DNA of 64,000 nt from Candidatus Latescibacterota bacterium (GCA_965248355.1 OZ252098.1:2880001-2944000), one strand, 5' to 3'. Numbered from the stretch's first letter, positions 52,613 to 64,000 are shown. Notes: a model not told the origin generated them from the sequence alone. Translations and numbers: made by a program.

Positions 52613-52633
52613 CTGGCACGGTCTTTGTATCGG
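52613..52633 (+). promoter_or_regulatory. sigma54-like -24/-12 promoter
   Basis: CTGGCACGGTCTTTGTA versus consensus YTGGCACGRNNNTTGCW. Confidence 0.65.
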
Positions 52634-52676
52634 GCCTGTGTGCAACGTGGCATCCCTCCAACCCCGTCGATGGGAT

Positions 52677-53912
52677 ATGTCGCAGCCAGGCGTCACCCGC
52701 CCTGTGCCATCCGCGCGTCCTCAGCCGCGCCGGCCGGGTCCCGGTCCCGCAACCGGCCGTGGCCCGGGCCGGGGCATCATCGTGCTCAACGGCAACTTCG
52801 CGCCGGCGTCGGCGGCGGGACCTTTCAAGTACGGAGCCGTGGCCTATGCCCTGAAGGCGGCGGAGGCCCTCGACCGCCAGGGGCTGTTGGCCGGATTCCT
52901 TCTCTACCGGCGCGACGAGCGGTTGCACCGGCCGCGTCTGGAGCCGGTGTCGTTGCTCGGGTATCCCGCCCTCGAGCTCGGCTTTCACTTCGACATGGAT
53001 CGCGAGGTGTTGGCCGCGGCCCTGGAGGACGCCCGCGCGCGCCTGAACCGCGGGTGCCTCTACTACCAGACCAACGTGCTGCTGCCCTTTCACCCGCCGG
53101 GGCGGCCCCTCGTCGTCACCCATCACGCGCCCTTCGTCGACCACGTGGTCGAGGTCATGGGGGACCGCCTGGCCGCGGAGGCCTTCGGGGCCGGGCGCGC
53201 CAAGCTGGAGCACCTGCGGCACAGCCAGCGCATCGGACTGGACTGCCTGGTCCGCAGCCGCGGTTCCGCCGTGGAGATCTCGTCGATCCAGGCCGACTAC
53301 CTGCGGATGCACGGTGTGGAGCCTCGGTTCATCCACAGGATCTACCCACCCCTGGAGTGGCCCGACGGGGTGAACGGCCTCTCGCGGGAGGGTGCGCGTC
53401 TGCGGCGCTTCATCGCCGAGGCCGGCCCCCGGTTGGTCCTGTGCACGGCCTGCTCGCGGCTGGACGCCTTCAAGAACGTCGAACTCCTCGTGCAGGCCGC
53501 GTTGCGGCTGGTGAGGTCGGGTCTCGACCTGCGCGTGCTGATCATCGGGGGCCCCCCTCGGGATGGGGAGCGGCGGCGCCTGGAGAGACTGGTGGACGAG
53601 GGCCTGGCTCACCGTTTCCGCTTTGCCCCCAGGGTCCCGCGCGAAGACCTGGCCCGGGTGCTCGATGACCTGGCCGGCCGCGGCCTCTTCGTCTGTCCTT
53701 CCCGCTACGAGACTTGTGGTCTGACCCCCCTGGAGGCGGCGGCGCGGGGGGTGTGCACGTTGGTGGCGGACACGCCCGACAGGGTCGAGGCCGCGATCGC
53801 TGGTTCCGCCCCGGCACCGGTTCTCGCCCACGGTGGAGGGCCTTGGAGCCGCCGTGCGCCGAGTCGCCGAGCGACGGTCGGACCCTTGTTCGACGATCGG
53901 AGTCCTCGATGA
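52677..53912 (+). CDS. Glycosyltransferase family 4 (C-terminus probably frameshifted near 53795-53815)
   Basis: [27 protein letters not shown] (EX7E). Confidence 0.8.
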
Positions 53913-54069
53913 GAACGCACAGGCCGGCAGCCGCGCCTTCGACGAGCTTGTTCATCGCGGCGTGGCTCCGGATCACGGCACCGGAGGTTCGCGGCAGACG
54001 CCTGCCGCGCCGGCAGCGACCGGCCAGAGCTCTCTCCGGAGCCGTCCCATCCCGCCTGAGAAGTCCACC

Positions 54070-61348: not shown

Positions 61349-61366
61349 CAGGAGGCTGAGACCGAC

Positions 61367-62134
61367 ATGGAACCGACCGTGGAGCTGGAAGACCTGACCA
61401 AGCGTTACCGGTCCACCGTGGCCGTCCGTTCCCTCTCCCTGAAGGTGGAGCCGGGGGCGATCCTCGGTCTCGTGGGGCCGAACGGCGCCGGCAAGACGAC
61501 GCTGCTGAACATGTTGGCCGGGCTCCTCGAGCCGAGCGAGGGCTCGGTGCGCCTCTTCGGACGCACCTACGCCGAGGCCGGCAACGACATCCGGGCCCTC
61601 ACCGGCGTCATGCGGGACGATCCGGGGCTCTACGAGAGCCTCACCGGATCGGAGCACCTGAGCTTCACCGGCTCGGCGTACGGCCTCGATCCTGCAGAGG
61701 TCGCGGAGCGGTCCCGCGAGGTGCTGGCGTTCATGGACCTGGAGCAGGCCGCCGGCGAGACCGCCGCCACCTACTCGGCGGGCATGAGGAAGAAGCTGGC
61801 CCTGGCCTGCATCCTGCTGCACCGGCCCCGGATGGTCCTCCTCGACGAGCCCTTCGCCGCCCTGGACCCCGAAGCCGCCCTCCGGGTGGAGGAGCTGCTC
61901 CGCCGGCTGTCGGCCGGCGGCGCCACCGTGGTCCTCAGCTCCCACGTCCTCGAGCGCGTCGACCGGCTCTGCTCCGAGCTGGCCTTCATCAACAAGGGAG
62001 AGCTGATCCTGCGGGGCCCGCCCGACGAGCTGCGCGCCCGGGGGGCCGAGGGCAAGAAGGCCGGGAGTCTCGAGGAGCTGTACATGGATCTCGTCGCCCC
62101 GGAAGGGGAGCGGCGGGGGCTCTCGTGGTTGTGA
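61367..62134 (+). CDS. ABC transporter ATP-binding protein
   Basis: GPNGAGKTT, YSAGMRKK, LLDEP, SSH. Confidence 0.95.
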   Translation: MEPTVELEDLTKRYRSTVAVRSLSLKVEPGAILGLVGPNGAGKTTLLNMLAGLLEPSEGSVRLFGRTYAEAGNDIRALTGVMRDDPGLYESLTGSEHLSFTGSAYGLDPAEVAERSREVLAFMDLEQAAGETAATYSAGMRKKLALACILLHRPRMVLLDEPFAALDPEAALRVEELLRRLSAGGATVVLSSHVLERVDRLCSELAFINKGELILRGPPDELRARGAEGKKAGSLEELYMDLVAPEGERRGLSWL

Positions 62135-63885
62135 GCCTGCCGGGCTGGCTCTCCTTTCGGCGACGGAAGCCGGCGGGGGGGTCCCTCCTCCCCTTTCTCT
62201 GGACCTTCCTCAGGCCCTACCGGCTGCGCGCGGCCGAGGCCTTCGCCGCCATGGTCCTGGCGGCGGCCCTCACCGTGCCCCTGCCGCTGGTGACGATCTA
62301 CCTCGTGGACGAGGTCTTCGCGGCCGGCTCGCGGAACACCCTCCACGTCGTCTGCGCCGGGGTGCTGGCCGTCTCCATCCTGAGCACGCTCCTGAGCCTG
62401 CTGCAGAGCTACCTGCTCACCGTCTTCGCGCGGCGCGTGTTCTTCGACATGGAGGTCACCCTCACCCGGAGACTGCTCGCGCAGTCGGCGGCCTACTTCC
62501 GAAAGGCGAGCCCCGGCTATCTCGCCACCCGGGCCAGCGACGACGTGCGCCAGCTCGGGGCCCTCATGGCCGGGACCTGGATCCAGGCCATGAACTCGGC
62601 CTTCGTGCTCGTCGTGGGCGCCGCGGTGATGACCGCCCTGAGTCCCGGGCTGGCCGCGATCCTGCTGGCCCACGTGCCCGTCCTGGCCGTGGTCAGCGTG
62701 CTCGTGGGTCAGAGGGTCCACGACCTCAACGCCGCGGTCCAGGAGCGCCGGGGGCAGACCCAGGCGGTGCGCATCGAGTCGCTGGAGAACATCACGGTGG
62801 TCAAAGCCTTCGGCGCCGAGCGCCGGCAGGTCGGACTGATCGCCAACAGGCTGCACCAGGAGCTCGACGCGGGCCTGGCCCGCGATGTCCGAGTGCTGGC
62901 GCTCTCCGGTGTCCAGAGCCTGGTGCACGCCGCCGGCTTTCTCGTCCTGCTGTGGGTGGGCGGGCTCGAGGTGATGAACGGCCAGCTGTCGCTCGGACAA
63001 CTCCTGGCGCTCAACTCCCTTCTCGCCCTCGTGCTCACGCCGACGGTACAGCTGTCCAACGTCTACATGAGCGTCAAGATGGCCCTCGGGATCCTGCAGC
63101 GGGTGCGCGACTTCGCCGGGCTTCCCCTGCACAGGGAGCGCGCCGGCAAGCCGCTCCTCGACATCGGTCCGGGCCGCGTGGAGTTCGAGAAGGTCTCCTT
63201 CCGGTTGCCGGGAGGGGGCGCCGTTCTGCACGACGTGTCGGCCACCTTCCCGGCCGGCCGGATCACCGCGGTGGTGGGCGGGACCGGAATGGGCAAGAGC
63301 ACGCTTGTGCGGCTCCTGCTCCAGCTGGAGGCCCCGTCGCGGGGATCGATCCTGATCGACGGCCGGGACTCGAGCGAATACGACCCCCGGAGCATCCGGG
63401 CCCACATCGGCTACGTCGAGCAGGAGGTGCACCTGTTCTCGGCGACGATCCGCCAGAACATCCTCTACGGCCGTCCCAGGGCCGCCGGAGACGACCTGGC
63501 CTGGGCGATCGAGATATCCGACTGCGCCGAGTTCCTCTCCCGGTTCCCGGACGGGATGGACACGCGCATCGGCGCCAACGGCGTCGAGCTCTCCAGGGGC
63601 CAGAAGCAGCGAGTCTGCCTGGCCCGGGCCATGGTCCGCAGACCGAGGATCCTCGTTCTCGACGAGACCACCGCCTCCCTGGACCCCGAGACCGAACAGA
63701 CCGTGATCCGCGCCCTGACGCAGGCCGGCGAGGGACGGACGACCGTCTACGTGAGCCATCGCCTCGCCTCGCTGGATTTCGCCGACCGGGTCGTGGTCAT
63801 GAACGGCGGGCGGGTGACGGGGGAAGGCAGTTTCCAGGACTGGGTCTCCGGAGGCGGGCCGGTCGCCGCCAGTGCCGGCCCATGA
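62131..63885 (+). CDS. ABC exporter, fused permease/ATP-binding (peptide exporter-like, no C39 domain)
   Basis: TM domain; GGTGMGKST, LSRGQKQR, LDETT. Confidence 0.9.
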   Translation: MSLPGWLSFRRRKPAGGSLLPFLWTFLRPYRLRAAEAFAAMVLAAALTVPLPLVTIYLVDEVFAAGSRNTLHVVCAGVLAVSILSTLLSLLQSYLLTVFARRVFFDMEVTLTRRLLAQSAAYFRKASPGYLATRASDDVRQLGALMAGTWIQAMNSAFVLVVGAAVMTALSPGLAAILLAHVPVLAVVSVLVGQRVHDLNAAVQERRGQTQAVRIESLENITVVKAFGAERRQVGLIANRLHQELDAGLARDVRVLALSGVQSLVHAAGFLVLLWVGGLEVMNGQLSLGQLLALNSLLALVLTPTVQLSNVYMSVKMALGILQRVRDFAGLPLHRERAGKPLLDIGPGRVEFEKVSFRLPGGGAVLHDVSATFPAGRITAVVGGTGMGKSTLVRLLLQLEAPSRGSILIDGRDSSEYDPRSIRAHIGYVEQEVHLFSATIRQNILYGRPRAAGDDLAWAIEISDCAEFLSRFPDGMDTRIGANGVELSRGQKQRVCLARAMVRRPRILVLDETTASLDPETEQTVIRALTQAGEGRTTVYVSHRLASLDFADRVVVMNGGRVTGEGSFQDWVSGGGPVAASAGP

Positions 63886-64000
63886 GGATTCCCTCCCGCA
63901 TCGAGTGGACCGGGGCAGCGGTCCTGATCTGCGCGGCCGCCTGCTCCCTGCTCCTGCTGATGGGGCTGGTCCTCATCGACGTGGAGCGGGGGGTCCGGGT
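63882..64000 (+). CDS. Partial membrane-anchored protein, possibly HlyD-type adaptor (runs off window)
   Basis: ATGA-coupled; MRIPSRIEWTGAAVLICAAACSLLLLMGLVLIDVERGVR. Confidence 0.5.
   Translation, partial: MRIPSRIEWTGAAVLICAAACSLLLLMGLVLIDVERGVR

Follow-up and report, generated by a model that had tools for sequence, protein, structure and literature searches.

Glycocins such as sublancin 168 and glycocin F are produced as leader-bearing peptides from clusters that combine a SunS-type GT2 glycosyltransferase with a double-glycine leader and a C39 peptidase fused to an ATP-binding cassette (ABC) transporter, and their helix-loop-helix cores follow a C-X6-C rule and hold two nested disulfides. 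Class II microcins, made by diderm bacteria, are hydrophobic peptides with disulfides whose export relies on an ABC exporter together with a membrane-fusion protein. Here we analyse a 64,000-nt window from Candidatus Latescibacterota bacterium (GCA_965248355.1 OZ252098.1:2880001-2944000; positions are window coordinates unless a locus is named), at one end of which three genes for small cysteine-bearing peptides lie within a run of 12 co-oriented + strand genes extending from 52677 to the window end at 64000. In its workings the locus would come closest to glycocin and class II microcin systems, yet it fails the features that define glycocins, namely the GT2 enzyme, the double-glycine leader and the C39-ABC fusion.

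Two enzymes of this cluster belong with proteins from small-molecule pathways. AziU3 and AziU2 (PDB 7WUW, 7WUX and 8GS1) constitute the aziridine synthase of azinomycin B, which acts by sulfate displacement according to the excerpted text of PMC12559475. CtaG, BtrH, AsbE and CcbD are presented in the accessible part of PMC12865890 as protease-like amide-forming enzymes that use carrier-protein thioesters, and AziU2/U3 are described there as structurally similar but functionally unrelated to them. Our literature searches returned nothing linking BtrH_N/DUF4872 or AziU-type proteins to ribosomal peptides: those combining BtrH with RiPPs (peptides made by the ribosome and then altered post-translationally) led only to flexirubin/dialkylresorcinol-type clusters, those on DUF4872 gave no results, those on AziU3 gave none on peptides, and none of the papers listed when BtrH was paired with bacteriocin and leader terms contains BtrH. 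Searches combining Gemmatimonadota, a phylum rarely cultured according to an extract of PMC11651109, with RiPPs found nothing specific among the papers listed, and the supplement of PMC12865890 contains neither 'Gemmatimon' nor 'RiPP'.

Gene content, homologies, a leader/core pattern, cysteine geometry and synteny were observed directly, and from them we infer every biochemical step discussed below. We propose that the locus encodes a leader-dependent, exported product of the bacteriocin/RiPP type with an unprecedented enzyme set, a reading for and against which we find the balance even. It is a credible candidate for a new RiPP/bacteriocin class, the main uncertainty being whether the enzymes act on the peptides.

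The peptide family and its flanking repeats

The three window peptides are 53-55% identical pairwise and share 26 invariant columns. A word-indexed search returned 46 homologous peptides, and the only name attached to them was "hypothetical protein", from Gemmatimonadaceae metagenome-assembled genomes (MAGs); the database homologue P0002 is identical to peptide 3 in the alignment. When 1.84 billion cluster representatives were searched exhaustively with a profile, only 9 proteins matched at E <=0.001, so that the family, as judged by these searches, is real but very narrow, and it is seen only in Gemmatimonadaceae-type MAGs. The peptides match no curated family in Pfam or NCBIfam, where the two longer peptide open reading frames (ORFs) gave only chance-level matches (E ~0.005-0.007, far under the cut-offs), and our literature searches found no published account of the cluster, in keeping with the novelty claimed for it in a first-pass annotation of this DNA. 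A scan of one genome collection identified three related loci: L001, on a 2.6-Mb contig of a MAG labelled Latescibacterota, and L002 and L003, in Gemmatimonadaceae MAGs. In each of the four genomes, the window's included, there are 3-4 distinct paralogues, 66-75 aa in length.

Conservation in these peptides is concentrated at the N terminus. Nine residues are invariant in the family alignment (M1, L4, K6, P7, Y12, G14, A21, Y22 and E27), all of them at or before E27; S11 is near-invariant. Mean column entropy is 0.56 bits over residues 1-23 versus 1.66 bits over residues 24-75, with conservation extending past Tyr22 and on to E27/W30. The N-terminal residues 1-23 are hydrophilic (grand average of hydropathy (GRAVY) -0.8 to -1.3; -0.80 in peptide 1). 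Cores of ~43-52 aa with 2-4 cysteines follow, at a GRAVY of 1.0-1.65 in the window peptides (+1.45 for residues 24-75 of peptide 1; family median 1.35), and each of the three has at most one charged residue after position 30. The entropy contrast and the position of the invariant columns give these peptides the conserved leader and variable core expected of RiPP precursors and suggest that they are precursors with hypervariable cores. This bears out the earlier view of the three paralogues, including the observation that the leader region ends in AY, not GG, since A21-Y22 is invariant. Circular bacteriocins, which have a DUF95/SpoIIM-type membrane protein and a Cys-free core of 58-70 aa, were considered and rejected: no DUF95/SpoIIM-type domain was found, and the cores differ in length and cysteine content.

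The cysteines are arranged in a regular way. Among 48 distinct peptides, four cysteines occur in 36, two in 10, three in one and a single cysteine in another. In all 36 four-Cys peptides, spanning 8 spacing patterns, the midpoints of the outer and inner cysteine pairs agree within 1 residue, which is the pattern that an antiparallel hairpin with nested links requires; the geometry is therefore consistent with such a hairpin. Where there are only two cysteines, as in 10 peptides, both members of the outer pair, Cys26 and the last Cys, are absent. A 66-aa subtype, accounting for 7 of the 36, has two C-X6-C motifs (Cys 26/33 and 56/63) and in this resembles the glycocins. AlphaFold2 (AF2), run on a 49-sequence alignment, predicted helices at 15-44 and 51-72 with a mean confidence (pLDDT) of 80.5. 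The four-Cys hairpin annotated initially thus agrees with the four cysteines of every window peptide, with their nested spacing and with the model, and with its two predicted nested disulfides it would parallel the helix-loop-helix core of glycocins. A fold search with the model gave 0 of 55 matches at E <=0.001, the best (E 1.7) being a generic or membrane-protein hairpin.

One divergent form was seen in two of the related genomes. L002 (9156-9362) and L003 (3224-3430) encode a 68-aa member with a normal leader, a Pro/Trp-rich core and only 2 Cys, related to the database forms P0105 and P0106; its core may be frameshifted or newly evolving.

Repeated elements surround the peptide genes. The 13-mer core of the element that lies directly upstream of each gene's ATG occurs 5 times in the window, versus 0.17 expected, and stands exactly before 12 of the 14 peptide genes of the four genomes and with one mismatch before a 13th. 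The first such element overlaps the end of the gene for a tetratricopeptide repeat (TPR) protein, which ends 49 nt before peptide 1. Downstream of the ORFs of peptides 2 and 3 lies a 16-23 nt inverted copy of the element; the inverted repeats I3 and I5 are 16 nt long and 94% complementary, their arms 305 and 311 nt apart. In the predicted minimum-free-energy RNA structure of 58896-59252, the stem formed by this pairing closes the whole peptide ORF (z = -3.92; 0 of 100 shuffles as stable), and minus-strand copies of the element are also present in L001 (2), L002 (3) and L003 (1). These bracketing repeats could form an mRNA processing or stabilising stem, or could be the scar of duplication or recombination. 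A perfect 36-nt direct repeat occupies 59213-59248 and 59654-59689. The gene for the 554-aa permease has its start codon inside the second copy, so that the unit containing peptide 3 appears to have been duplicated recently, taking its junction with the permease along. A sigma-54 promoter within the upstream element, judged by eye, was set aside, its spacing being off by one; a sigma-70 promoter scan of 52-64 kb gave 0 sites, and terminator-like sites were uninformative.

Enzymes, transporters and a downstream protease

Two adjacent genes of the cluster encode proteins of 211 and 336 aa. The smaller, first annotated as a beta-sandwich protein, matches AziU2/Azi28 (7wuw_A, 8gs1_A) by phmmer at E 2.2e-13; 64 homologues were found, and an hhalign comparison of a 38-sequence alignment (A4) with a Streptomyces AziU2-like protein gave a probability of 99.9 and E 4.5e-32 over 185 columns. 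It has no Pfam or NCBIfam family, and protein-atlas leads reached unnamed clusters only. The larger protein matches Pfam BtrH_N at 46.2 bits (cut-off 29.7) and DUF4872 at 26.1 bits, just under the cut-off of 28, and its profile matches AziU3/Azi29 at E 2.6e-8; 56 homologues were found. An AF2 model (pLDDT 93.1) comprises a papain-like N-terminal domain and a helical C-terminal domain; Foldseek ranked AziU3 first (template-modelling (TM) score 0.77-0.79), followed by CtaG and CcbD (TM 0.60-0.65, E 2.7e-9 to 5.9e-8). Alignment with a Streptomyces homologue by hhalign (probability 99.4, 308 columns) brought Cys18, His121 and Asp139 into register, and across 39 sequences this putative triad has H121 and D139 invariant and C18 at least 90% conserved. 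Foldseek and conservation together indicate the bipartite papain-like and helical fold with its Cys/His/Asp set. To C39 peptidases the similarity is only weak: Peptidase_C39_2 scored 17.8 bits, below the cut-off of 24, and ComA/PCAT1 appeared in Foldseek at E 3e-3 or weaker with a query TM score of ~0.3. We therefore rejected a C39/PCAT leader-peptidase identity for the papain-like protein.

The stop codon of the AziU2-like gene overlaps the start of the AziU3-like gene at 54702-54705, and by sequence the two proteins are one unit of full-length homologues of AziU2 and AziU3; the papain-like protein accordingly loses the stand-alone status first assigned to it. Family membership is established by sequence and fold; ribosomal peptides would be the obvious candidate substrates. 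As in azinomycin B biosynthesis and in the Streptomyces homologues, the genes are adjacent and overlapping, that for the small subunit leading; homology spans the whole of each subunit, and the Cys, His and Asp columns are common. Identity is only 18-35%, however, and the neighbourhoods differ: LysW/LysX, transketolases and non-ribosomal peptide synthetase (NRPS) genes lie near the Streptomyces pair, whereas none is found here, nor is the sulfotransferase expected from the sulfate-displacement pathway as outlined in the excerpted PMC12559475, and the neighbours are ribosomal peptides, GT4 glycosyltransferases and transporters. A tblastn search of a plasmid collection with the AziU3-like protein found only 2 Streptomyces records, both azinomycin-type small-molecule clusters; the Streptomyces plasmid cluster, of azinomycin/vazabitide type, carries LysW, LysX, transketolases, ArgC and NRPS genes. 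Among the ORFs scanned here (34-64 kb and downstream in L001), genes for a carrier protein, a LysW/amino-group carrier or a sulfotransferase were not found. To BtrH, CtaG, CcbD and AsbE the likeness is a BtrH_N match above cut-off. Those enzymes take acyl groups from acyl or peptidyl carrier proteins, of which there is no match among the cluster proteins, and act alone, whereas an AziU2-like partner is present here and the fold is nearer to AziU3 by the TM scores given above. Like AziU3/U2, the pair might carry out a substitution or close a ring at a hydroxyl that has been activated; like BtrH, CtaG and CcbD, it might use Cys18 to transfer an acyl group or for proteolysis; leader cleavage is a further candidate.

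Two glycosyltransferases flank this pair. GT4a matches Pfam Glycos_transf_1 (E 1.3e-14), Glyco_trans_1_4 and GT4-conflict (38.8 bits, cut-off 26) in its C-terminal half only, its sole PDB sequence match is 6kih (E 2.9e-5) and its relatives align from residue 14-22; it is a divergent GT-B glycosyltransferase, 78% identical in L001 and L002. GT4b is canonical (Glycos_transf_1, E 1.6e-25; Glyco_transf_4, E 8.4e-10), with PimB'-type mannosyltransferase, MshA and others as PDB relatives, and is intact in L001 and L003. No GT2 match was obtained for either in Pfam, NCBIfam or the PDB relatives, and only GT4/GT-B families match, as annotated at first pass; this separates the locus from the SunS-type enzymes of glycocins. 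The TPR protein (TPR_2, E 1.6e-8; TPR_12, E 9.9e-8), in which Pfam found no enzyme domain, is 73-76% identical in L001-L003. Judged by eye from the translations, the cluster enzymes have no hydrophobic signal-like N-terminal stretch.

The remaining genes of the cluster encode transport proteins. The 554-aa membrane protein, 77-78% identical in L001 and L002, has no Pfam family; a protein-atlas lead placed it near clusters in which PF16949 ABC_tran_2 occurs in 16-32% and PF09847 12TM_1 in 11-15% of members. It is a probable permease partner of the following ATPase, the ABC-2 label being only a language-model lead. That ATPase (Pfam ABC_tran, E 1.4e-28) is 93-94% identical in L001 and L002 and scores 202 bits with the NCBIfam drrA subfamily (cut-off 312) and E 4.4e-44 with galliderm_ABC. 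In the exporter, ABC_membrane covers residues 40-306 and ABC_tran residues 368-517. Alignments to the NCBIfam HlyB, NHLP and bacteriocin_ABC models begin at model positions 137-161, from which it follows that the N-terminal domain is absent; with no peptidase domain in Pfam and a transmembrane domain starting at residue 40, the exporter lacks C39, as had been noted. Absence of a double-glycine leader and of a C39 domain, together with extra tailoring genes, also distinguishes the cluster from class II microcin and YknWXYZ systems.

The order of genes from GT4a to the ABC exporter is kept in L001, in L002 and, to the contig end, in L003, at 70-94% protein identity. Past the point that corresponds to the window end, L001 and L002 continue with a 147-aa single-pass membrane protein (no Pfam family in L001), a Yip1/YknW-like protein (32.4 bits, far below the cut-off of 110), a subtilase fusion, an HlyD-like protein and a MacB-like permease. 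We take the Yip1/HlyD/MacB-type set to resemble YknW, YknX and YknZ of the YknWXYZ peptide-toxin resistance transporter. The subtilase, of ~638 aa and intracellular type, joins a QhpE-like S8 domain (E 1.1e-35) to a region matching TIGR04066, 'peptide maturation system protein' (E 2.5e-30), both matches lying below their NCBIfam cut-offs, and to DUF1611; it starts at residue 5 without a pro- or signal peptide and has the Asp, His and Ser motifs. It would be a better candidate for leader removal than the papain-like protein. In a Paenibacillus sactipeptide cluster, as outlined in the accessible text of PMC10731318, two neighbouring but distinct genes encode TIGR04066 and a subtilisin-like protease that acts on the leader. 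That part of PMC10731318 shows SacP23-type Clostridial/Paenibacillus clusters to be similar in placing a TIGR04066-type and an S8 protein near a Cys-rich precursor and an ABC transporter. They differ in keeping these as separate genes that work with a TIGR04068 radical SAM maturase as well as an ACP-like protein, whereas in L001 and L002 the two are fused and there is no cluster-specific radical SAM enzyme, the nearby one being of the PA0069 family. A radical SAM/SPASM enzyme had been thought possible beyond 64000; the syntenic loci have none and carry the S8/TIGR04066 fusion and the YknW/HlyD/MacB-like genes instead. The upstream radical SAM gene (46841-48049; 480 bits against the PA0069 cut-off of 360) was rejected as a maturase on its family and on a position relative to the cluster that is not conserved.

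Proposed pathway and competing readings

In the pathway we propose, three precursor genes would supply peptides whose conserved hydrophilic N terminus (residues ~1-23, possibly to 30) would serve as a handle for cytoplasmic proteins: the AziU2/U3-like enzyme, one or two of the GT4s (at least GT4a) and the TPR protein, possibly as a scaffold. The hydrophobic core would fold as a helix-turn-helix hairpin, and after export nested Cys-Cys links would form, an outer one from Cys26 to the last Cys and an inner one from Cys35 to the third. The leader would most likely be removed by the intracellular S8/TIGR04066 fusion, less likely by the papain-fold subunit. Export would proceed through the C39-less ABC exporter together with the small membrane protein encoded next to it. 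Protecting the producer, or completing export across the envelope, would fall to the permease/ATPase pair and to the YknW/HlyD/MacB-like genes. The mature products would probably act on the membranes of competitors. Glycosylation of the peptides would be a further, putative step.

A stronger version of this proposal, which we regard as doubtful, is that an AziU2/U3-type enzyme, a kind so far known only to form aziridines on a small-molecule amino alcohol, has been recruited to ribosomal peptides and, with the GT4s, installs a modification undescribed in RiPPs, so that the products would form a new class of disulfide-stapled, membrane-active hairpins in Gemmatimonadota. It might consist of a ring closed, or a substitution made, at a side-chain hydroxyl that has been activated, or Cys18 might mediate the transfer of peptide to an amino sugar. 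If true, the AziU2/U3 enzyme family would gain its first role on ribosomal peptides and a second biochemical context, which could clarify the role of the conserved Cys/His/Asp set; it would also establish a new RiPP tailoring logic of GT4, papain-fold heteromer and S8/TIGR04066 fusion. The system is small, with three precursors and four or five enzymes, and is suited to heterologous co-expression.

Several observations weigh against the leader-dependent, enzyme-tailored reading. In the part of PMC12865890 that covers them, all known relatives of the papain-like subunit have small molecules or carrier-protein thioesters as substrates, and none has a ribosomal peptide. The pair may also exist without this peptide family: in a crude co-location proxy that matches the sizes of the longest contigs of enzyme and peptide homologues, none of the homologues below 75% identity on contigs of at least 15 kb had a peptide-family match (0/19 AziU3-like, 0/18 AziU2-like), while at 75% identity or above the matches numbered 3/6 and 4/6. 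The four full-cluster genomes are close relatives, at 70-94% identity, and for that reason synteny is weak evidence of functional coupling. GT4b in L002 (6590-7159) is an in-frame remnant of ~200 aa in which only residues 1-159 and 366-394 align and most of the Glycos_transf_1 domain is gone, and yet four peptide genes are kept. Either L002 can do without at least one GT4 or its copy is in decay, and the loss may be genuine or may stem from MAG assembly. Pfam found no PqqD-like or other RiPP recognition element domain among the cluster proteins. The hydrophobic loop of the core has no noticeably conserved Ser, Thr or Cys, which weakens the glycosylation reading. The locus departs from glycocins in this, and also in the membrane-like hydrophobicity of the core, the absence of a thiol-disulfide oxidoreductase gene inside the cluster and a host from a Gram-negative-type phylum. 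With a core that matches membrane proteins in hydrophobicity, the peptides could simply remain in the membrane of the producer. The peptides with two cysteines seem to be a single subfamily, so that their shared lack of the outer pair may trace back to one event.

Some of these points would be accommodated if the locus were two unrelated modules, which we think rather unlikely: an unmodified, disulfide-only, microcin-like (class II) bacteriocin, comprising the peptides, the three transport systems and the S8 protease, beside small-molecule or envelope-glycoconjugate genes (GT4a, the AziU2/U3-like pair, GT4b and the TPR gene). The proxy result for divergent homologues and the small-molecule substrates of all characterised relatives of the papain-like subunit fit this arrangement, as do the generic GT4b, closest to lipid and small-molecule GT4s (PimB', MshA), its deletion in L002 without loss of peptides, and the conserved element upstream of each peptide gene, a possible separate promoter. 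The block is nevertheless contiguous and co-oriented with its order kept in all loci seen, and the spacing between the TPR gene and peptide 1, with the first upstream element overlapping the TPR end, also speaks against separate modules; the contig join on which the argument draws is a crude proxy, and the carrier, sulfotransferase and amino-group carrier that AziU3/BtrH/CtaG-type enzymes need were not among the scanned ORFs. Were the modules unrelated, an ordinary-looking, uncurated family of hydrophobic Cys-paired bacteriocin-like peptides would remain. A rather unlikely reading of another kind holds that the peptides are resident membrane hairpins whose conserved cytoplasmic tail (Y12, G14 and the near-invariant S11) is itself functional, for example as an acceptor or carrier on which the GT4s and the AziU2/U3-like enzyme would assemble a product for the ABC systems to handle, or as a transporter regulator. 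Their almost uncharged cores and nearest fold matches, non-significant though these are, agree with residence in the membrane, the conserved, hydrophilic tail would be on the cytoplasmic side along with all the enzymes, and the small carrier protein that papain-like relatives need, according to the excerpted PMC12865890, is not annotated at the locus. Three to four diverging paralogues with hypervariable cores and differing lengths are, however, unusual for a structural or carrier role; paired cysteines in hydrophobic helices suggest oxidative stapling outside the cytoplasm, and the subtilase/TIGR04066 module and YknW-like toxin-resistance-type transporter fit processing and export better.

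Prepilin peptidases cleave after Gly, Ala or Ser at position -1. An A24 peptidase gene 9 kb upstream of the peptides (48662-49675) and the invariant Glu27, 5 residues after Tyr22, raise the idea of class III (prepilin-like) substrates cut before Ser23 with Glu27 at +5. We rejected this as extremely improbable: the residue at -1 is an invariant Tyr, no A24 homologue lies within the 20 kb of L001 covered, and the A24 gene adjoins a better candidate substrate, a 101-aa protein with the N-terminal motif ...LVGG/FIASE...

Layout of the locus and surrounding genes

The cluster lies in a region of ~70% G+C and has an operon-like layout, with stop and start codons overlapping at three junctions and gaps of 14-221 nt elsewhere. 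ORFs, Pfam and NCBIfam bear out the content and coordinates of the co-oriented cluster as first annotated, with the difference that it starts at 52677 and not at 52613. A Pfam family is absent for 5 of the 11 cluster proteins (the 211-aa protein, the three peptides and the 554-aa protein).

Table 1. Genes and repeat elements of the peptide cluster, in window coordinates.
Feature	Position	Strand	Details
GT4a	52677-53912	+	411 aa from ATG 52677; ORF open from GTG 52638
AziU2-like subunit, 211 aa	54070-54705	+	phmmer/hhalign to AziU2
AziU3-like subunit (BtrH_N/DUF4872), 336 aa	54702-55712	+	Pfam, AF2/Foldseek, hhalign
GT4b, canonical GT4 glycosyltransferase, 401 aa	55906-57111	+	Pfam
TPR protein, 477 aa, cytoplasmic	57126-58559	+	Pfam TPR_2, TPR_12
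Conserved upstream element including ribosome-binding site	58564-58608, 58906-58950, 59341-59387	+	direct repeat family D1/D3
Peptide 1, 75 aa	58609-58836	+	Cys 26, 35, 60, 71
Peptide 2, 71 aa	58951-59166	+	Cys 26, 35, 56, 63
Inverted copies of upstream element	59227-59242 (after peptide 2), 59668-59683 (after peptide 3)		inverted repeats I3, I5
Peptide 3, 73 aa	59388-59609	+	Cys 26, 35, 58, 69
Polytopic membrane protein, 554 aa, probable permease	59684-61348	+	without Pfam family
ABC ATPase, DrrA/NodI/lantibiotic-protection type	61367-62134	+	Pfam ABC_tran, NCBIfam
Half-type ABC exporter (transmembrane and nucleotide-binding domains), 586 aa	62125-63885	+	Pfam ABC_membrane and ABC_tran
Small single-pass membrane protein, cut by window end	63882-64000	+	matches start of L001 15227-15670

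Rfam gave 0 matches on the whole window, and a defence-system reading was dropped when PADLOC returned only generic ABC ATPase and subtilase matches. Local G+C dips to 0.597 at 4001-6000 and to 0.628 at 42001-44000, against ~0.70-0.75 elsewhere in the window. All named relatives other than L001 are Gemmatimonadaceae/Gemmatimonadetes, which suggests mislabelling of L001, a binning error or gene transfer.

Upstream of the cluster, the PA0069-family gene is 91.5% identical in L001 and lies there directly upstream of GT4a rather than 4.6 kb away, a shift that indicates local rearrangement between genomes. The A24 prepilin-peptidase-like gene is followed at 49781-50086 by the gene for the 101-aa protein, which has no family match and whose C-terminal domain contains ~10 Cys; the gene pair is also present in L002, and the 101-aa protein may be an unusual class III signal-peptide substrate. 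Nearer the cluster, 50172-51101 and 51237-52250 encode paralogous secreted-looking proteins of 309 and 337 aa for which neither Pfam nor NCBIfam nor the PDB sequences gave a match, and copies of them adjoin the cluster in L001 and L002 too.

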